NCBI GenBank assembly: GCA_965224085.1
Contig: CBDCYI010000004.1
Span: 480,001 to 544,000 of the forward strand
Direction: 5' to 3'
DNA length: 64,000 bases
Origin: Candidatus Marinacidobacterales bacterium
GTDB taxonomy: Bacteria; Acidobacteriota; Vicinamibacteria; Marinacidobacterales; SMYC01
Shown here: positions 31,627-41,546 of the stretch, piece after piece
How positions within the stretch are numbered: the stretch's first letter is position 1
Layout: each line of letters opens with the position of its first letter
Translations under genes and position numbers: made by a program
The notes under the pieces: model-generated
Seen by the model: only the letters and a program-made list of their open reading frames with translations
What the model was told of the DNA's origin: nothing
Database searches by the model: none

Positions 31627-32640
31627 CTACGCCTGGGTGAACGGAATGACCCCCGGGAGGAGCCACTTCTCCCACATCTCATCAATCTTCGCCTGGAAGT
31701 ACTCGATATCTTCGTCAACGAAGTGGGCGAAGCGACCCTGCCGCATCAGGTACTCGCGAACCGGCTTGCGCTTGACGGTTCCCTTTGCGATATGTTTGGA
31801 CTTGCCGTACATCTTGAGCCTATGCTCTTCGACCTCATAGAGCGGCCAGATGCCGGTCTCCACAGCAAGCTCACCGAGCTCATGGGAGTACATCGGATCG
31901 TAGTCCCAGCCTTTGGGGCAAGGATCGAGCGAGTGGATGAACGTCGGCCCGCCGATGGCCAACGCCTTGCGCACCATGTTCATCGTCGCAACCGCATTGC
32001 CGGCGCCAACGGTCGCCACGTACTTACAGTCGGGATGACCGGCCGCCAACATCGCCGCCGTGTTCTTTTTCCAGCGCCGGTGCATGATGCGATGCAGCTT
32101 GCCCGGCGGGCTGAAAGTGGAGTTCGCACCATACGGAGAGGACCCCGACACCTGGATGTCGGTGTTGGCGTACGACTCGTTGTCGTACATCAAGATCAGC
32201 AAGTTGTAATGGGTGTGCTGGAGTGCGGCCGAAATGGCCGAGAGCCCCATGTCGGCGCCACCGCCATCGCCGCAAAAGGAGATGACGTTGATCGGCTCCT
32301 GCTCCATCTTACCCTTGCGCATCATTGCCCTCAGACCGGCGACCGTGCCGGTGGCAGCGGAGCCCGCCGATCCGAGCTGTGTGTGCATCCAGGGCACCAC
32401 CCACGGCGTGGAGTAATACGTGGTGTTGGCGACGTACATGCAGCCGGTGGCGCCGAGGATGATCGAGCGCGGGCCGGCCGCCTTGGCCATGAGCTTCATG
32501 AGCAGCGCCGACTCGCACCCTTGACAGGTGCGGTGACCCGAGGTGAAATACTCCTCGCGGGCGACTTTCTTGATGCCCTTCCAAGGTTCAAGGACCTGCG
32601 TTGAAACGAACTCGTCGAAAGCTACAGTATTTTCTGGCAT
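31627..32640 (-). CDS. 2-oxoacid:ferredoxin oxidoreductase beta subunit, oxalate oxidoreductase-like
   Basis: GHRTCQGC, TGCMYVANT, GDGG, YDNESYANT (TPP binding), PCPKGW. Confidence 0.9.
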   Translation of the reverse strand: MPENTVAFDEFVSTQVLEPWKGIKKVAREEYFTSGHRTCQGCESALLMKLMAKAAGPRSIILGATGCMYVANTTYYSTPWVVPWMHTQLGSAGSAATGTVAGLRAMMRKGKMEQEPINVISFCGDGGGADMGLSAISAALQHTHYNLLILMYDNESYANTDIQVSGSSPYGANSTFSPPGKLHRIMHRRWKKNTAAMLAAGHPDCKYVATVGAGNAVATMNMVRKALAIGGPTFIHSLDPCPKGWDYDPMYSHELGELAVETGIWPLYEVEEHRLKMYGKSKHIAKGTVKRKPVREYLMRQGRFAHFVDEDIEYFQAKIDEMWEKWLLPGVIPFTQA

Positions 32641-32645
32641 GATGG

Positions 32646-33902
32646 CTACTCCCTCACTCCTATCCAGTGAGTATCTTGATCATCAATGTCACCGCCGCTG
32701 GCGGCGTCGAACACGTTGCTGGCTATATCGATGACGTTGTCGGTGCTTACTTCACGTCCGCCCAGACCGGCGATGAATGAAATAATCCCGGGCCGGTTCG
32801 CCGCTGGATAGAGGGCGGCGCGCAGCTCGTTGGCCAGCACGCCGCTGAAGAAGCTGGAGCCGAAACCGTAGTCGCGATCGATCACACCGACGGCTTGCAC
32901 CCCCGACAGCGCGTCCTGCAGCTCGATGGTGGGGAACGGGCGGAACCATCGGACTCGGACAAAGCCGACCTTTTTGCCTTGCGCGCGCATCTTGCGGACA
33001 GCGACTTTCACCGGCATCGCCAGCGTCCCCATTCCGACAAGGGCGACCTCGGCGTCCTCCATCATGTAGCGCTCGATGAAGGGCTCGCCGCCGCGCCCGA
33101 ACTGGGCGTTGAAATCGTCGTACGCCTCGATAATGACGTCCCGGGCACGGCGCGCCGCCATGTCGTTTTGCCGGCGGACCTCCATCACCCAATCCTCGTT
33201 CGCCTGGGGGGCGATGGTGATCGGGTTGTCCGGATGCAACTGCTTTTCTGCCCGGTCATAGGGCGGCAGGAAACTGTTGACCATGTCCTGGCTGGGCACG
33301 TTGACGATCGCCTGCGAGTGGGTGAGAAACGCACCGTCGCAGCTGATCGCGCAGGGAAGGAAAACGCGCTTGTCTTCGGCCACACGGTAGGCGATCAGTG
33401 CCGTGTCCAACGCCTCCTGCGCCGTAGCCACCCAGCAGAGCATCCAGCCGAGGTCGCGCACCGTGAGCGCATCGTTGTGCTCGACCCCAAAGGCACCAGG
33501 ATCGTCGAGCGCTCGGTTGCCGACCATGGCAATCATCGGCAGGCGCAACCCGGCGGTGACTGCCAACGCCTCGTAGGCGTAGAGCCAACCGACGCCACTG
33601 GAGCCACAGAAAACCCGGGCCCCCACCGCCGAAGCGTGCTTGACGATCTCAAACTGCGAGTGCTCGCTCTCCGCAACGATGTATTCGCAGTCGAAGTCTC
33701 CGTTGGCGATCAGTTGCGATACGTATTGCATGACTGTGTCGTACGGCCGGATCGGGTAAGCCGTGATCACGTCGACGTCGGCGAGCCGGACCGCATGCGC
33801 GATCGCTTCGCTGCCACTGATCAGCTCCTCTGAACCACGCCCCGGAACGAGCGAGGCTGCGATATCTGCCTTCTTCGCGGTAGCTGCATTAGGTGGGCTC
33901 AT
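32646..33902 (-). CDS. 2-oxoacid:ferredoxin oxidoreductase alpha subunit, oxalate oxidoreductase-like
   Basis: VRLADVDVITAYPIRPY, ESEH, GSSGVG, NRALD, FRPFP, AGLGGRE. Confidence 0.9.
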   Translation of the reverse strand: MSPPNAATAKKADIAASLVPGRGSEELISGSEAIAHAVRLADVDVITAYPIRPYDTVMQYVSQLIANGDFDCEYIVAESEHSQFEIVKHASAVGARVFCGSSGVGWLYAYEALAVTAGLRLPMIAMVGNRALDDPGAFGVEHNDALTVRDLGWMLCWVATAQEALDTALIAYRVAEDKRVFLPCAISCDGAFLTHSQAIVNVPSQDMVNSFLPPYDRAEKQLHPDNPITIAPQANEDWVMEVRRQNDMAARRARDVIIEAYDDFNAQFGRGGEPFIERYMMEDAEVALVGMGTLAMPVKVAVRKMRAQGKKVGFVRVRWFRPFPTIELQDALSGVQAVGVIDRDYGFGSSFFSGVLANELRAALYPAANRPGIISFIAGLGGREVSTDNVIDIASNVFDAASGGDIDDQDTHWIGVRE

Positions 33903-35016
33903 CGGCTATCTCCTCGGCGTACTGGCCTACGTGGTGAAACCCGTGGCTACGGGGGGGCGGCTCCGAAATTTTTTTGGACAACCACCCAGAGTAGCTTTCC
34001 TTGTCCTTGGTCCACATTTCCCACTGGCTGTCGTTGTCTGTGAAGGCTTCCTCGTTGACCATGGTGATGCAATGGCTTACCGGGCAAACGTCCTCGCACA
34101 CGCCGCAACCACAGCAAGCTTCCATGTTGGCGTCGTAGAAGCCGTCGGGCGAGATGTCGAAGCAAGAGTCCGGACATTGCAGCCAACAGACTTTGCACTG
34201 GGTACAGGTTTCGAAGTTAACCACCGGCCGCATGGTGCGCGTCGAGAACTTCTTGAAGGTCGGGTTGCGGGTGGGAACGTAGCCGCCATCCCAGCCGGGG
34301 ACCTCTTGCTGCCCGGCGATGCCGCGAATCACCAGCCCCTCTTCCATCGTCTTCCAGCCTGGCATTTCGAACTCGTACGGGATCTCGTCGTTGCCCTGAT
34401 CGGCGCCAACCGACAGCGACTCGACCCGATCATAGGCCTTCTTCGCAGAAGCCGCCTTCAGGGGATCGCTGATCGTCGCCACGATGGAGTCCAGGCTCAC
34501 GAGGTGGGGGGCGACCTTGGCCAGCGCCCCAAGTAAGCGCATATCGGTGTGATCGTCCTTGTACACCCACAGCCCTGAGAAACTAGCGATGCCTTTGATG
34601 ATGGCGAGATTGTAAGGCTTGGTGCGGTGGATGTTGTTGATCAGCTTATTGTGTGAGTGGATCGAGGGGACCAAAACCGTGCCGCCCTCCCGGAGCAGCT
34701 TGTTGATCGGTTGCAGGCCATACCAGGCCCAGGACTCGACGCCCTTGCACAGGGTGTCGTCGCAGGCAATGGTCACGTCATTGTTGTTGGGCTCGTACCG
34801 CGAGAGGTGCTCTTCCATCTCCTCTTCGGTGTCAGCAACGACGGCGAACTGCTTGGCGGGGATCCCATTACGTTCCGGCGAGTCACTGTAGCGCCCGAAC
34901 GCGATACCGATCTTGCCTTCTTTTTTGGCGGCAAAGACAATGCTGCGGCAGATGTTTTTGGCTAAAGTCTTCTGAAAAATGCCGCGGTATACGACTTCCA
35001 CGGATCCGGTGCTCAT
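33889..35016 (-). CDS. Fused gamma/delta subunit with 2x[4Fe-4S] ferredoxin domain
   Basis: CTQCKVCWLQCP and CCGCGVCEDVCP; N-terminal VVYRG...YSDSPER; RBS GAGGAGG. Confidence 0.85.
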   Translation of the reverse strand: MSTGSVEVVYRGIFQKTLAKNICRSIVFAAKKEGKIGIAFGRYSDSPERNGIPAKQFAVVADTEEEMEEHLSRYEPNNNDVTIACDDTLCKGVESWAWYGLQPINKLLREGGTVLVPSIHSHNKLINNIHRTKPYNLAIIKGIASFSGLWVYKDDHTDMRLLGALAKVAPHLVSLDSIVATISDPLKAASAKKAYDRVESLSVGADQGNDEIPYEFEMPGWKTMEEGLVIRGIAGQQEVPGWDGGYVPTRNPTFKKFSTRTMRPVVNFETCTQCKVCWLQCPDSCFDISPDGFYDANMEACCGCGVCEDVCPVSHCITMVNEEAFTDNDSQWEMWTKDKESYSGWLSKKISEPPPRSHGFHHVGQYAEEIADEPT

Positions 35017-35560
35017 AGCTCGTACCTCCTCGCCGTCTAAGAAGAAGGCCAAACAGTATCAAATCCCAGCCGTTTCTGGCAACCTAGAAGCGCCCTGCGC
35101 ACACGAGCCCACAGAAAAGAAGGGCCTAACGCCTATTTCTGCGCAAAAGCTACCGAACATACCGTGACACAGTCGGTAAAACGGCAACGTCGACAATTGT
35201 CGGTTACGATGGTGTCACTTACCTCGGGCTTGCGTAAGGGGTAAAGAGCAAATTGTCACGACTGTCCAGGTCCGCTGAACAGCCGCGCCACGGTCGATAT
35301 TCTCTATTCACATGGCTCTCGTAAATGCCAACCGTAGTCCTACACCGCAATGCAGAAGTCTTGTCAACTTTCACACATGCCGACACCTTGCCAGCCAACG
35401 TCGAATCGCAACTCATAGCCGGCGCAAGTGCGCGCCCCGAGCCTACCCGGGATGACTTGTGGAAGGATAGATCGGATAGGTATATTAAGCGGGATTTAAA
35501 GATGGTCGTGGTGGCGTGCAGTTTCGGCAGGCGAACTGAACTCGCTACTAGGAGAAAACC

Positions 35561-35770: not shown

Positions 35771-36149
35771 ACAACCTGCAAATTGTCCACAACATCGGTG
35801 CACCAAATTTGTGCCGCGGCACGATGTCTTGATTGAAAATCAACGACTTACGCCACGCTTGCAGAACCCCATAAGCTCCACCTGCAGGGTATAGCTCCCT
35901 CCTTGGATCCCCAAGAGGGAGATTTGCGTGAGAACGGCTCCGTCACGCACCTGGCCTACGGCGGTCTCACGCTCGAGAAGCAACTCCTCATTCCGATTCG
36001 AAGGTGTCCAGCTTCACCCTACAGCGGAAGCGGTCTTTACCATCGGCGACAACGTCGAGGTTCTGACTCAGCTGGAGTGAGCGGACGGCGCCCATCGTCT
36101 CCGGATCGAGCTCCTTTCCGATGGAACGTTCCTGCTCGCTCGAACGTGT

Positions 36150-36470
36150 CACGGGTCGGACGACGAGGGTCGTGGAGAGAACACGCGAGATCGGTATCCG
36201 CATGGCGATCGGCGGCGCGCCGCGGGACATCGCGCGCGGCGAAGTGTCGCGCAACATGCGGCCCGTTCTCGTCGGGCTCGCGAGCGGACTCGTCGCGTCG
36301 TTCTTCGTGACGCGTTTGGCCTCGAGCTTTCTCTTGGCGTGAGCCCGTGGGACGGCGTGAGCTTCTTGTCAGCGCTCGGGCTATTGCTCATCGCCGCGCT
36401 CGTCGCAAGCTACGTCCCTGCAACGCGGGCCGCCGCGCTGGACCCGGTGCAAGCGCTCCGCCGGGATTGA
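36150..36470 (+). pseudogene. ADOP/FtsX-like ABC permease C-terminal remnant
   Basis: ERTREIGIRMAIGGAP...VSPWDG...VPATRAAALDPVQALR with a frameshift near 36340. Confidence 0.8.
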
Positions 36471-36658
36471 TGATGGATGCGCGGTCTACGGCGTAAAGTC
36501 GGTTGGATGAAAGACCGAGCCCGTCGCCAGCAATGCCTCGCCGGAAGGCGTTCAGAACCGACGCGTCGTCATCAAAACGAAAGCTGACGGCTCATGAAGT
36601 TGGGGAGCGCCGGACGGAAGGTTCGATAAAGTCCTCGTGCTCGTTTACACTTCCGTCC

Positions 36659-37762
36659 ATGATTACTGCCCGCGCCGATGTCATAGGCAGCTTGCTTCGC
36701 CCTCGTGAGCTTCTAAAAGCTCGGGAAGCCCGGGCCGCAGGCCAACTGTCTCAGATCGAGTTCAAAAAGATCGAAGATCGCGCTGTGGACGGGGCGGTAG
36801 CCCTTCAAGAGGGGCTCGGCCTCGAAGTCGTGACGGACGGTGAGATGCGCAGGAGCTCCTTCCAAAGCCAGATGACCGACGCCGTGTCGGGTTTCGCCGA
36901 GCATGGTCTGGACGCCTTTCTCTGGGGAAAGTGGCGGAGTAACGAGCTCGAAGAATGGAACGTCGAGAGGCCGGAGCTTGCCGTCATCAGAAAGCTCGAG
37001 CGTCGCCGTTCTCTCTCAGCGGAAGAGCTCGTCTATCTCAGCGCCCGTGCCAAGGCGACCCCGAAGATCACGCTGCCGAGCCCAACCCTCTTCATCAACT
37101 TCTGGTCGCCCGAAAGGTCGCGCCACGTCTACCCGACCCTTGACGCCTACTTGGCCGATGTCGTCGAAGTGTTACGCGAAGAAGTGGCGGAGCTCTCGCG
37201 CCTGGGCGCCACCTACATTCAACTGGACGCTCCGCACTACACCTCCCTGCTAAACGCCACGAACCGCGAATTCTACGAGGGCCACGGATGGACCATCGAG
37301 GGCTGGCTCGATCGTGGGATCGAGCTCGAGAATGCGGTGATGGAAGGCCTTCCGGAGTTGACCTTTGGCTTTCACCTCTGACGAGGCAACCAAAACAGCC
37401 GGTGGCTGTCCGAAGGAGACTACGAGCCGATCGCCCGAGCGTTGTTCTCGAGAATCCAGGCCGACCGACTTATTCTCGAATACGACGACGAGCGCTCGGG
37501 CTCTTTCGCACCTCTTGGCCACGTCAACGAGAAAGCCATCGTCGTTCTGGGATTGGTGGGGACCAAGACGCCTGCCACTCCTTCCACGGACGCGCTCGAA
37601 AGACGGATTCGAGAAGCCAGCAAAGTGTTACCCAAAGAGCGGCTCGCCGTTTCGACGCAATGCGGTTTCTCGACCTCGATCGTGGGAAATCGTATCTCCA
37701 TCGCTGACCAGGAAGCCAAGCTGCGCCGAGTCGTGGAAACGGCAAAAAGTATCTGGGGGTGA
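36659..37762 (+). CDS. Cobalamin-independent methionine synthase II (MetE C-terminal-like) family protein with in-frame TGA at the zinc-ligand Cys; probable selenoprotein (367 aa)
   Basis: RADVIGSLLRP, VVTDGEMRR, YIQLDAP, FHL[TGA 37379-37381]RGN, LEYDDERSG, VLGLV, STQCGF are all in one frame. Confidence 0.8.
37395..37409 (+). promoter_or_regulatory. Candidate bacterial SECIS hairpin
   Basis: ACAGCC-GGT-GGCTGT: 6-bp stem with a G-first loop, 19 nt after the TGA. Confidence 0.6.
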
Positions 37763-37781: not shown

Positions 37782-38291
37782 TCACTCGAGCTCGAGGGGC
37801 TCGCTTTGGGAGGCGGGCGCGGGCACGATGTCTGGATGGCCGTCGATGATGCGGGCGCAAGTGTTCCAGCGCAGCACTGCATCATCTTTGCCCTCGGGGC
37901 TGAGTTTCTGCGCTTTCTCGTAGTGATCCATCGCCTCACCGAGTCCCTCATAGGCGAGGTGCCCGCAGCCCGGAATCCCTTTGTCATACTGGGACTTCGC
38001 GCGGCGCTCCGCGATGAGACCAGCGTAATATTCTTTCTCGTAGTCGCTCGTAAGCGACTTGGCTAGCTCGCGCGATTCACGGACTCGCTGCCCGAGCCCG
38101 CGTGCAAATTGGTCGGTGAGCGCAAGAAGAAGCGTTGCTGTGGCTAGCTGGTGGCCCGGGTCTACTTCGAGCACGTCTCGGCAAATGCTCTCTGCTTCCA
38201 AAGGCTCGTTCAACGCGCGATACCAAACCGCTTTCTCGAGTGCCGAGTCGATGGCGTTTTCGGAAATCGACTTGAGCTCGAATTTCTTCAA
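37782..38291 (-). CDS. Conserved-looking helical/TPR-like protein coupled to frdD
   Basis: TTG start overlaps the frdD stop; AESICRDVLEVDP, YYAGLIAERRAK, LRWNTCAR. Confidence 0.75.
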   Translation of the reverse strand: MKKFELKSISENAIDSALEKAVWYRALNEPLEAESICRDVLEVDPGHQLATATLLLALTDQFARGLGQRVRESRELAKSLTSDYEKEYYAGLIAERRAKSQYDKGIPGCGHLAYEGLGEAMDHYEKAQKLSPEGKDDAVLRWNTCARIIDGHPDIVPAPASQSEPLELE

Positions 38292-38638
38292 GAGAAATTC
38301 CAGAGAAAAAACGCTGCCGCGACGGTTCCGGTGAGAGCACTGCCGTAACAGACAAGGACGATCGGAACGTGCAAGTGCTTCAACTTCAATCCGTCATACA
38401 GAGTGTAGCGGAAGCGATGCGCCCCGTGGAACAAGGGGAGCGAGATCAGAACGAAGAGATATAGCCGCGCTAAAGGATGGCTTAACAAGCTCACTACAGA
38501 ATCGTAACCCGGAATGTCGATCCATCCCAACGGGATGAGGAGCCCGGTTACGAGCACGTGTAGAGGGAAAAGTAGCGCGGCAACCGTGCCTCCGGCACTG
38601 AAGAGTAACCAAAGAAGGGGTGTCATTTTCTTTAGCAT
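38288..38638 (-). CDS. frdD: Fumarate reductase subunit D
   Basis: WLLFSAGG, LPLFHGAHRFRYTLYD, CYG. Confidence 0.88.
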   Translation of the reverse strand: MLKKMTPLLWLLFSAGGTVAALLFPLHVLVTGLLIPLGWIDIPGYDSVVSLLSHPLARLYLFVLISLPLFHGAHRFRYTLYDGLKLKHLHVPIVLVCYGSALTGTVAAAFFLWNFS

Positions 38639-38640
38639 GG

Positions 38641-39057
38641 CTACCTTACGAGCCAGAACCACGCCACGACGGCGGAGACAACGAGCCAACCGATATAGTT
38701 CGACACGATGATCAAGAGATCGGGAACGCGTTTCCCCGAGAGACGAACTTCCATCGCCTTGGGGGCCAGATGAAACCACGTCTGCGCGTGAAACAAGACG
38801 GCGACGAAGATCAGAACGTTGAGTGCTACGGCGAGAGGAGACGACATCCACGTCTCGAAACGGGCGTAAGCTTCGGGCCCGTTCGCGAGAGAGCGGACCT
38901 GCCACAAAGTCAAGAGAGAGAAAATCGCGACGGGCACGCTCGTCAGCTCGCGCAGAACGAACTTCATGTAGCGCCAGCGCGAAAGCCACCACCAGACAGA
39001 CACGGAACGCCGATACCATTTCGGGTGATACAGCGTGTAGCGCGCCTCACTCGTCAT
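38641..39057 (-). CDS. frdC: Fumarate reductase subunit C
   Basis: WWWL...[25 protein letters not shown]. Confidence 0.88.
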
Positions 39058-39800
39058 TTCGAGGCCCAGGGGAGAATGGTCTTGAACCAATTCGCCGCTC
39101 CCGTCAGTTTGTAGCGCTGTATCGCGCCGGCGGGGTCGACATCCTTGGGGCAGACTTCCGAGCATTCGCCGACGAACGTACACTGCCACATGCCATCATC
39201 CTGCGATAGAATCGAAAGACGCTCCGAAGCGCCTTCGTCGCGCGAGTCCATGTTGTAGCGCTGGGCGAGGGCGGTAGCCGCCGGGCCGATGAAGCTCGGC
39301 TCGAGCCCGATCACCGGACAGGCGGAATAGCACAGAAGACAGTTGATACACATGCTGTAGCGCTTATAGGCGTCGAGCTCGTCTGGGCTCTGCCGGTACT
39401 CTCCTTCAGAGAGAGGTTTTTCCTCTTCGCGGACGATCCACGGTTTCACTTTCTTGAGCTTCGTCATGAACGACGTGATGTCCACCACGAGGTCGCGGAC
39501 CACCGGGAAGTAGCGCAGGGGCTCGATCCGAACCGGGCCGGGCGCGTACTGACTCAGAAACGCCGCGCACGTGAGCGTGGGCTCGCCGTTCACCATCATC
39601 CCGCAGCTGCCGCACACGCCCATCCGGCACGACCACCGGTGCGAGAGCGAGCCATCGAGCGTATCTTTGATGTAGTTGATCGCATCGAGGATGGCCCAAT
39701 CGTCGCGGAGCGGTACCTGGTAGTCCTGGACAGTGGGCTCCGATTCCTGCTCCGGCCGATAGCGGCTGACGCTTACGGTGATGGTATCGGCCATGCTCAC
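39054..39800 (-). CDS. frdB: Fumarate reductase iron-sulfur subunit
   Basis: [42 protein letters not shown]. Confidence 0.92.
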
Positions 39801-41546
39801 CTACTTTCCATAGACCCGTTTGCCGGGCGGCCAGCGAGTTATACTGACCGGCGCGTATTCGATTCGGGGCGCGTTCGATTCTGTTCGGTACACGAGCGAG
39901 TGTTGCAGGAACTTGTCGTCGTCCCGCTCCGGGAAATCTGTTCTCTGGTGAGACCCCCGGGACTCGTGGCGCGCCTTGGCGGAATGGATGATGGCTTCGG
40001 CGGCATCCATCATGTAGCCGAGCTCGAGCGCAGCGGTGAGCTCGGTGTTGAACGTGCGGCTATCGTCATCGAGAGCGATGTTATCGAGTCTCTCGCGAAG
40101 CTTCGCTAACTGCTCCGCACCTCGCTCCAGCTCCTTCCCGTTGCGGTAGATGCCGACGCACTTCTCCATGGTCGTCTGCATTTCTTCGCGAACGGTAGCG
40201 ATGCGCTCCGTGCCACCAAGCTTTTCGAGAAAATCTTTCTCGAGGCGCCTCTGCTCGTCTCGGGCCTGAGCGGAAATAGCAGAGCTTCCATTGCCTTCTA
40301 CCTCGAGCGCGAACTTGGCGGCGGCATCACCCGCTCGTGCGCCGAACACGAGGAGCTCAGTAAGCGAGTTGGAGCCGAGGCGATTCGCGCCGTTGATGCT
40401 GACACATGCGGCCTCGCCCGCCGAGTAGAGTCCGGCAAGCGGCGTGGCGCCGTTTAAATCCGTATGAACGCCTCCCATGATGTAGTGCACCACGGGGCGC
40501 ACGGGGATCATTTCGTGAACGGGATCGATGTTCACGTATTTGCGACAAAGCTCACGGACAAAGGGGATGCTCTTGTCGATCTTCGCTTCGCCGAGATGAC
40601 GGATGTCTAGATGGACGAAGTTGCCATACGGGCCTTCGAAGGTTCGGCCTTTGTCCTGCTCCTTCACGAACGCTTGGGAGAGCCGGTCCCTCGGACCTAG
40701 CTCCATCGAGCGCAGAACCGGGTGGGGCTCAGGTTTGCCTAGATCATAGTCCTGCAGGTAACGGTAGCCGTCTTTATTCAAGAGCCAGCCGCCTTCGGCG
40801 CGCGAGGCTTCGGTTATCAAGATGCCGGTGAATGGGAGTCCGGTCGGGTGGTATTGCACGAACTCCATGTCTTTGAGAGGCGCGCCGGCGCGGTAGGCGA
40901 GCGACATACCATCGCCGTTCTTGATGTTGGCGTTGGTGGTGAACTGGAATACTTTCCCACAGCCGCCGGTGCACAGCAGCACCGACTTGGCCAAGATCGT
41001 GACGATCCTACCGGTAGCGAGCTCGATGGCGACCACGCCGCGACAGCGACCCTCGTCCACCAGTAGCCGGGTCACGAAATACTCGTCGTAGCGTTCTATC
41101 GGATCGTGTTTGAGGGTCGTTTGAAAAAGCGCGTGGAGCATATGGAAGCCGGTCTTGTCGGCGGCGAACCACGTGCGTTTGGTCTTCATCCCTCCGAACG
41201 GGCGGACGGCAACGGAGCCATCAGGAAGCCGACTCCACGGGCAACCCCAGTGCTCGAGCTGCAACATTTCACGGGGCGCCTCGTTAACGAAGAGTTCGAC
41301 GGCGTCTTGGTCGCAAAGCCAGTCCGCTCCCGAAATCGTGTCATAGGCGTGATCGTCGAGACTGTCGTCGTCTTTGATGACGGCGGCCGCGCCACCTTCC
41401 GCAGAAACGGTGTGACTGCGCATTGGGTAGACCTTGGAGGCCACGGCGAGACTGAGCTTGGGGTTGGTTTCCGCGACGGCGATGGCCGCGCGCAAACCAG
41501 CGCCGCCACCCCCGACGATGAGCACATCGTGGGAGAAAACGTCCAT
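39801..41546 (-). CDS. frdA: Fumarate reductase flavoprotein subunit
   Basis: [20 protein letters not shown] (covalent FAD His), [22 protein letters not shown]. Confidence 0.93.

Follow-up and report, generated by a model that had tools for sequence, protein, structure and literature searches.

The 64,000-nucleotide stretch analysed here (the window) corresponds to positions 480,001–544,000 of contig 4 (G000:C4; CBDCYI010000004.1) in the 6.87-Mb, 95% complete assembly GCA_965224085.1 of a Candidatus Marinacidobacterales bacterium. On its forward strand, at 36659–37762, lies a gene related to the catalytic domain of the cobalamin-independent methionine synthase MetE, in which an in-frame TGA is predicted to encode selenocysteine (Sec). 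The reading frame consists of 367 codons followed by a TGA stop, and its parts are listed below in window coordinates (SECIS, selenocysteine insertion sequence).

36659–37762, + strand: whole gene, MetE C-terminal-type (PF01717), with predicted Sec at codon 241, as judged from the frame, Pfam, AlphaFold and Foldseek
36659–36661, + strand: ATG start, supported by alignment of the N-terminus M-I-T-A-R-A-D-V-I-G-S-L-L-R-P to residue 1 in both orthologues and Cys homologues
37373–37375, + strand: codon of His239, a predicted zinc ligand that the profile alignment matches to His618 of T. maritima MetE; identical in all 39 sequences
37379–37381, + strand: in-frame TGA, codon 241, predicted to be read as selenocysteine; the sole internal stop, in the column of the zinc ligand Cys620 of T. 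maritima MetE
37395–37409, + strand: SECIS-like hairpin within the coding sequence, with stem 37395–37400/37404–37409 and loop GGT at 37401–37403
37478–37480, + strand: codon of Glu274 (L-E-Y-D), predicted zinc ligand equivalent to Glu642; invariant, aligned to the strand-end Glu of MetE
37661–37663, + strand: codon of Cys335 (S-T-Q-C-G-F), predicted zinc ligand equivalent to Cys704; invariant, aligned to the P-D-C-G motif of MetE
37760–37762, + strand: terminal TGA, the true stop, placed by the frame end and by the ends of orthologues

The two listed open reading frames (ORFs) of this region, 36503–37381 and 37442–37762, share one frame. As the initial annotation had proposed, this frame is broken only by the TGA at codon 241, no other internal stop being present between the ATG at 36659 and the stop at 37760–37762, and the motifs F-G-F-H-L-U-R-G-N, L-E-Y-D (E274) and S-T-Q-C-G-F (C335) are found as it described them. 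Orthologues with a stop right past the aligned end finish in ...W-G-stop or ...W-R-stop, and in one (L031) the stretch translated ends ...W-S-E-G before any stop is reached. Since the gene's own terminator is also TGA, the recoding of codon 241 would be local, leaving the genetic code unchanged.

The internal TGA recurs at the same column in the relatives of this gene. Genome protein searches were translated through stops and were therefore not biased toward TGA. In a protein search of 41 relatives, all nine orthologues at 65–100% identity carry one TGA, while a sample of 401 genomes of the phylum contained the TGA form in two further classes (G171 and G349), together with two Cys orthologues at 57–58% identity. 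The 78 genomes of the order to which one of the Cys genomes belongs yielded one more TGA form (G842) and one more Cys form, so that 12 Acidobacteriota reference genomes in all have TGA at this column. The TGA is always embedded in H-L-U-R-G-N, whereas paralogues at or below 49% identity possess H-x-C-R-G-N, with TGC or TGT at the Sec column. Among homologues compared for TGA against TGY, close orthologues thus all have TGA (9/9 at 65% identity or more) and more distant ones Cys. No further orthologue was detected at E ≤ 1e-100 in 300 additional Pseudomonadota genomes, a sample that therefore added nothing to the Cys-form DNAs.

The same arrangement is common in metagenomes, where the DNA pattern H-L-TGA-R-G-N-Q-x-S-R-W-L was retrieved from at least 119 stretches, 80 loci of which were analysed. 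In 76 of these the frame past the TGA remains open for 115–136 codons (mode 126) and then stops; the other four run off the contig. When 91 loci are considered, 66 give genes that are open over the full homologous length and are 49.5–100% identical to the window protein, whereas of the remaining 25, L027 is interrupted by an additional TAG and the others by contig ends. The single internal stop in each of the 66 genes arises by construction, because each frame was drawn outward from the TGA as far as the next stop on either side, and the informative part of this set is therefore the length and the alignability of both halves. The pattern for the Cys form had no matches in the viral_contigs scan.

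Database proteins fall on either side of this codon. The best 120 full-length matches (367–409 aa, 61–67% identity) contain HLCRGN in 119 cases and HICRGN in one; some of these Cys matches are named 'cobalamin-independent methionine synthase II family protein', and they derive from metagenome-assembled genomes (MAGs) of Gammaproteobacteria, Alphaproteobacteria, Anaerolineae and Nitrospinota. Cys-form DNAs have TGC at the column in six of six cases. A further 81 proteins were matched by the N-terminal 240 residues, and 76 of them are 235–259 aa long and end exactly in ...F-H-[L/V/I], indicating that these gene calls were cut at the Sec codon; the few short proteins with names come from Nitrospinota and Acidobacteria MAGs.

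A base-call error at codon 241, a concern raised at the outset, is not borne out: contigs assembled from runs of three studies (one run may be the source of the assembly) cover 37379–37381 without difference, and the only difference listed in them is an A>C at 37472 in one run. Several short high-depth contigs (to ~480) of runs X1 and X3 match only 37350–37389, with 90–95% likeness; these probably come from related genes of other organisms present in those samples.

The part of the gene beyond the TGA is under purifying selection, as is the part before it, with no relaxation on the 3' side. The pooled ratio of nonsynonymous to synonymous substitution rates (dN/dS) is 0.163 upstream of the TGA and 0.205 downstream, as estimated from 43 pairs of usable divergence among 2145, the pairs not being independent of one another. 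In codons +1 to +10 after the TGA dN/dS is 0.142, with a synonymous rate (dS) of 0.184 versus 0.325 in the rest of the downstream part. Selection of this kind past the TGA implies that the downstream part is translated, including the 20 codons ahead of the next possible start.

This bears on two alternative explanations. The first holds that a MetE-like gene was inactivated by a simple nonsense mutation, TGC to TGA, and the genomic surroundings lend it some plausibility. The 'many nearby pseudogenes' invoked in the initial annotation proved partly real, in that the remnant of an FtsX permease gene lies directly upstream (36121–36470, + strand); the other candidate, a broken MetE-like paralogue, lies about 35 kb downstream and so beyond the window. 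The upstream remnant consists of two short adjoining ORFs, the first of which yields a PF02687 match (FtsX-like permease domain, C-terminal; E 7e-6), and it looks like a pseudogene fragment of what was once a much larger ATP-binding cassette (ABC) permease gene. The paralogue fragment (L197, G000:C4:552000–554000, in the source genome) matches only residues 9–173 of the query, at 35% identity, and contains an in-frame TAG, from which we take it to be a pseudogene remnant as well. An additional TAG is also present in one orthologue (that of G002, see below). Nevertheless, 12 reference genomes and 80 metagenome contigs share this TGA, at protein identities as low as 49.5%, the reading frame is open over the full protein length, and the downstream part is constrained to the extent given above. 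A nonsense mutation would not last at one column over such divergence, and we consider inactivation vanishingly improbable.

According to the second explanation, the gene is split: the TGA would be a true stop, and a separate C-terminal polypeptide, initiated for example at TTG 37442, would assemble with the 240-residue N-terminal piece. Gene callers do give exactly these two ORFs, and many database entries are proteins of 240–242 residues. However, the most conserved part of the family is encoded by the 20 codons that separate the TGA from the next start, with R242, G243, N244, G253 and Y255 invariant, and the low dN/dS of the codons right after the TGA indicates that they are translated. Moreover, the two parts are always in phase and the stop falls precisely at the Cys ligand column, and one zinc ligand would be lost if translation ended there. 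A split gene is thus extremely unlikely, and translation of the downstream part, as implied by selection, speaks for the exclusion of both explanations.

If codon 241 is read through, the question becomes which residue is inserted. None of the selABCD genes lies inside the window, as had been noted at the outset, but all components of the Sec machinery are present elsewhere in the genome. Profile searches of the source genome recovered selA (550 bits, cut-off 268), selB (365 bits, cut-off 242) and selD (280 bits, cut-off 125); tRNA-Sec, the product of selC, is present at 74 bits, and ARAGORN assigns it the anticodon tca. Likewise, selA scores above its cut-off in seven of the seven other Sec-form genomes tested. 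The selD match (L012; G000:C5:1545162–1546073, − strand) lies in a 774-aa open frame, far longer than the usual SelD, which may therefore be fused to another domain.

The source genome also possesses a gene for the formate dehydrogenase alpha subunit with one in-frame TGA (FdhA, 1339 bits) and a second fdh-like gene, again with one TGA. The two fdh-type genes are as follows.

G000:C5:2096968–2099964, − strand: fdh-type gene with in-frame TGA, ...N-Q-A-R-L-U-H-G-P...
G000:C4:1100993–1101556, + strand: fdh-type gene with in-frame TGA, ...S-C-N-R-T-U-H-A-P...

In fdhA, an 8-bp stem presents the loop GUU 19 nt after the UGA; in the second fdh gene, the loop GGUCU is located 18 nt after it.

A comparable hairpin follows codon 241. 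According to the legend of Fig. 2 in a 2026 review of prokaryotic selenoproteins (PMC13188914), the bacterial SECIS element has a loop of 3–9 nt, a stem of at least 4 bp, a G in the first two loop positions, a spacing of 16–37 nt from the UGA and a minimum free energy (MFE) of −7.5 or below. The hairpin ACAGCC/GGT/GGCTGT at 37395–37409 conforms to this model, with its 3-nt loop GGU, 6-bp stem and distance of 19 nt between UGA and loop, and has an energy of −7.9 kcal/mol with two flanking bases (−7.2 bare). The hairpin itself had been spotted in the initial annotation, although the spacing of '19 nt' given there applies to the start of the loop and not to that of the stem, which begins 13 nt after the TGA. 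Both spacing and loop match those of the genome's own fdh genes.

More telling than the stem is the choice of codon in the loop. Among 73 distinct Sec forms, the Arg codon of the loop is CGG in 63, AGG in five and CGT in five, and never CGC, CGA or AGA, so that the loop invariably starts with G followed by G or U (73/73). In the same genes, the Arg codon directly after the UGA is CGC in 28 cases, CGG in 24, CGA in 10, AGA in six and CGT in five. All six Cys-form DNAs have CGC as the loop Arg codon, giving the loop GCU, and on the sequences at hand it is this codon that discriminates Sec forms from Cys forms.

The remaining alternative is that the UGA is read through without Sec, either by near-cognate insertion of Trp or Cys or by a suppressor tRNA. 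The case for selenium is indeed a comparative and not a chemical one, and the hairpin is small and its covariation weak. Against this, the gene's own terminator is TGA, which must hence act as a stop in this genome; selA is present in eight of the eight Sec-form genomes tested; the column is occupied by Cys in all homologues examined, as in a classical Sec/Cys pair; and the loop begins with G and then G or U, as do SelB-binding loops, at a spacing like that in the fdh genes. We judge read-through of this kind to be very unlikely. It is, instead, highly probable that UGA-241 is decoded as Sec and that the gene is a real, intact selenoprotein gene.

The residue concerned is placed at a metal site by its fold and alignment. 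The match to PF01717 (Meth_synt_2) spans the TGA, covering residues 8–341 and profile positions 5–307 of 324 (75.1 bits, cut-off 21; E 7.8e-21). The AlphaFold model (predicted local distance difference test, pLDDT, 94.2; predicted template modelling score, pTM, 0.93) has the (β/α)8 barrel of the MetE C-terminal domain, and the best Foldseek matches are 1xr2_B (T. maritima MetE; E 6.1e-21, TMq 0.76) and 1ypx (E 6.5e-21), with TMq values of 0.75–0.76. Positions H239, C/U241, E274 and C335 are invariant in 39 family sequences. In T. maritima MetE (1T7L/1XPG), the chain residues aligned with the four positions by a profile of these sequences are 650, 652, 674 and 736, which, after subtraction of a chain offset of 32 residues that we infer, become His618, Cys620, Glu642 and Cys704; these are the zinc ligands reported for that enzyme (PMC539065). 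The profile alignment was relied on here, as a single-sequence phmmer alignment to C. albicans Met6 put the Glu ligand locally elsewhere.

In the model, H239 ends the strand 235–240 and U241 sits on the loop that follows, E274 ends the strand 270–274, and C335 lies on the loop after the strand 329–333. The same topology of zinc ligands has been described for MetE (PMC539065). The proposal that Sec occupies a zinc-ligand position is thereby upheld, the alignment to solved MetE setting the TGA on Cys620, and we regard it as likely that Sec241 serves as a zinc ligand in place of that cysteine.

The gene would accordingly specify a full-length selenoprotein of about 41 kDa that belongs, within the MetE catalytic-domain family, to the 'cobalamin-independent methionine synthase II' branch. 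UGA-241 would be decoded by SelB and tRNA-Sec under the direction of the in-gene stem-loop, through its apical GGU loop 19 nt after the UGA, and Sec241 would substitute for the His-x-Cys cysteine, the first of the cysteines that bind the catalytic zinc, giving a putative Zn(His239, Sec241, Glu274, Cys335) site. By analogy with MetE, the zinc would bind and deprotonate a thiol substrate, which would then attack an alkyl (probably methyl) donor. Two benefits of Sec can be envisaged. It might provide a softer, always deprotonated ligand; alternatively, a selenenyl-sulfide formed with Cys335 might be reduced more easily than the Cys–Cys disulfide of oxidised MetE, a Cys620–Cys704 disulfide having been observed in zinc-depleted MetE crystals (PMC539065). 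More speculatively, Sec itself might be transiently methylated, in a methyl relay compensating for the missing folate or corrinoid domain. The source genome encodes a complete MetH (1649 bits), and PF08267, the N-terminal folate-binding barrel, has no match in this 95% complete assembly; together these features suggest that the protein is probably an accessory thiol alkyltransferase rather than the main methionine synthase.

Several observations weigh against a functional selenoprotein with Sec on zinc. Most of them concern the hairpin. Its four inner pairs (AGCC/GGCU) follow from the conserved Ser(AGY)-Arg-Trp-Leu codons, the metagenome pattern itself required S-R-W-L codons, and Cys forms can form the same stem. 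Across the 73 sequences 88.3% of cells pair, but changes on both sides are seen in just two of seven pairs, and the pair 17–31 is unpaired in 37 sequences. The covariation score of 0.113, compared with a shuffle mean of 0.097, was reached by 12 of 500 shuffles, and the inner pairs are forced by coding. On one sequence the hairpin does not rise above chance, the MFE of the 62-nt fold, −14.2 kcal/mol (z = 0.35), being equalled or bettered by 134 of 200 shuffles. In the RNAalifold consensus of nine close orthologues the sequence hardly varies and compensatory changes are accordingly absent, and an Rfam scan of 37340–37480 gave chance-level matches only, with no family.

The hairpin agrees with the published model and its loop starts uniformly with G-[G/U]; its covariation is weak, and its stem is not confined to Sec forms. 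What does exceed chance, judging from comparison across relatives, is the conserved TGA column combined with the constrained loop codon; the Cys-form control for the latter is small, comprising six DNAs from three lineages. In the G002 orthologue (same genus, chromosome-level MAG; L027/L046), an extra TAG stands where a Trp is otherwise conserved (T-I-K-G-stop-L-D-R-G), alongside the Sec TGA. The cause is either decay of this copy or a fault in the assembly, and decay in single genomes is possible. Clustering of the neighbourhoods of 90 Sec-form loci revealed no universal partner or conserved operon around the gene. Finally, selenium incorporation, the Zn–Se bond, the benefit of Sec, the methyl donor and the substrate are points that we infer.

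Some neighbours do recur within clades. A TauE/SafE-like transporter gene is found convergent and downstream in 11 loci of one clade. In another clade, a gene for an EgtD-like S-adenosylmethionine (SAM)-dependent histidine methyltransferase (PF10017) is located directly upstream on the same strand, with a gap of 20–96 nt (six loci: L053, L069, L082, L104, L111 and L134; E 6e-113 for L134). Both neighbours are possible hints at the substrate.

The nearest known proteins are the Cys members of the 'cobalamin-independent methionine synthase II family' (PF01717 only), which are of like length (about 369 residues) and share with it the fold and the invariant residues, among them those of H-x-C-R-G-N, L-E-Y-D and Q-C-G-F. 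The nearest metagenomic and MAG homologues in this family are 61–67% identical to the window protein, and the closest solved structure is 1YPX from Listeria; the difference is that here the first Cys zinc ligand is specified by UGA (Sec). The NCBIfam models PRK06520 and PRK06233 for methionine synthases of the B12-independent YxjG/YxjH type are matched below their cut-offs (231.2 versus 313 and 217 versus 576 bits), which by this measure places the window protein on a related but separate branch. Canonical MetE (1T7L/1XPG/1XDJ) has the catalytic barrel in common with the window protein, as well as the positions of all four zinc ligands, and hence probably the same chemistry, namely zinc-activated thiolate alkylation. 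The window protein, with its 367 residues, differs from it in lacking the N-terminal folate-binding barrel and in carrying Sec in place of Cys620, and scores 49.2 bits against the canonical model TIGR01371 (EC 2.1.1.14), far from the cut-off of 929.95. The core methionine synthases MesA–MesD are, like the window protein, of the single-barrel MetE type without a folate domain and need other methyl donors (PMC7857596); selenocysteine does not occur in that article. NCBIfam models related to MesA–MesD are matched weakly (PRK09121, 38 bits; PRK04326, 80 bits; PRK00957, 30 bits).

To our knowledge, selenoproteins are overwhelmingly redox enzymes, and the metals bound by Sec are redox-active (Mo, W or Ni). 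Formate dehydrogenase (Mo/W–Se) and [NiFeSe] hydrogenase likewise use Sec for a Cys metal ligand and have a bacterial SECIS element just after the UGA (PMC13188914), whereas the metal in the present case would be a redox-inert zinc in a group-transfer enzyme. Two selenoproteins in Table 1 of the same review, arsenite methyltransferase and methylated-DNA–protein-cysteine methyltransferase, are non-redox alkyl-transfer proteins. In these too Sec takes part in methyl-transfer chemistry and not in classical thiol–disulfide redox, but their folds are unrelated (SAM-dependent methyltransferase and Ada/Ogt type, respectively) and Sec acts as the acceptor or as a substrate-binding residue instead of a catalytic-zinc ligand. 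The use of Sec in non-redox group transfer, described as unusual in the initial annotation, therefore has alkyl-transfer precedents. Since metal-ligand Sec and alkyl-transfer selenoproteins are both precedented, the kind of protein is a known one, and it is the zinc-ligand variant that appears to be new.

Table 1 of the review comprises 119 prokaryotic selenoprotein families and subfamilies, none of them a methionine synthase or assigned to PF01717, and the article has zero occurrences of 'methionine synthase', 'MetE' or 'PF01717'. The deep-Sep paper (PMC12013277) contains no occurrence of methionine synthase, MetE, methyltransferase or zinc, and NCBIfam release 20.0 has no dedicated model. 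No report of a selenocysteine-containing methionine synthase was found in the literature, supplementary tables lying outside this search, so that an earlier mention is possible. One candidate precedent was set aside: the MtaA-like proteins that PMC10418091 ties to methyl-selenium metabolism belong to a different family.

Sec and Cys forms have a convoluted history. A FastTree phylogeny combined 61 distinct Sec forms with 71 Cys forms, the latter comprising every second of the 120 database matches, five genome orthologues and six paralogues used as outgroup. The two states are interleaved in the tree, which needs 11 changes of label, at least three of them forced by well-supported branches. Both Acidobacteriota Cys-form genomes tested retain selA, suggesting that Cys forms do not simply result from loss of the machinery. 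The presence of the hairpin already in Cys forms suggests that few changes would be needed to switch: two point changes, TGC to TGA at the ligand and a synonymous CGC to CGG in the loop, would toggle between the sulfur and selenium forms. Whether this is the first natural enzyme family with Sec on a catalytic zinc, Zn(His, Sec, Cys, Glu), in which Sec and Cys have been swapped repeatedly thanks to a latent S-R-W-L near-SECIS hairpin, is a proposal to which we give even weight for and against.

Were it to hold, Sec on a Lewis-acid zinc would provide a natural experiment in the tuning of zinc-thiolate alkylation by a selenolate, which might also protect an oxidation-prone site. The latent hairpin of the Cys forms would also offer a concrete model for the origin of new selenoprotein genes. 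The family is common in metagenomes and yet is annotated there as truncated 'hypothetical' or 'MetE' fragments.

A distant paralogue of about 30% identity (L196, G012:C4:226500–229000) retains Cys in H-V-C-R-G-N and has an in-frame TGA elsewhere. This TGA aligns with a Cys of paralogues of the L040/L041 type (...T-F-M-C-A-S... versus ...K-F-F-stop-A-A...), and the frame changes between the two halves; L196 is either a gene in decay or a case of a second Sec site within the wider family.

Downstream of the selenoprotein gene, and convergent with it, the window contains a fumarate reductase/succinate dehydrogenase operon (38288–41546, − strand) with the following genes.

39801–41546, − strand: frdA
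39054–39800, − strand: frdB
38641–39189, − strand: frdC
38288–39019, − strand: frdD

Between this operon and the selenoprotein gene lies an ORF of 169 aa (37782–38291, − strand) without a Pfam match. On the other side, three genes of the 2-oxoacid:ferredoxin oxidoreductase type occupy 31627–35052 (− strand) and encode a 4Fe-4S ferredoxin-domain protein, a POR_N/PFOR_II protein and a thiamine pyrophosphate (TPP)-binding subunit.

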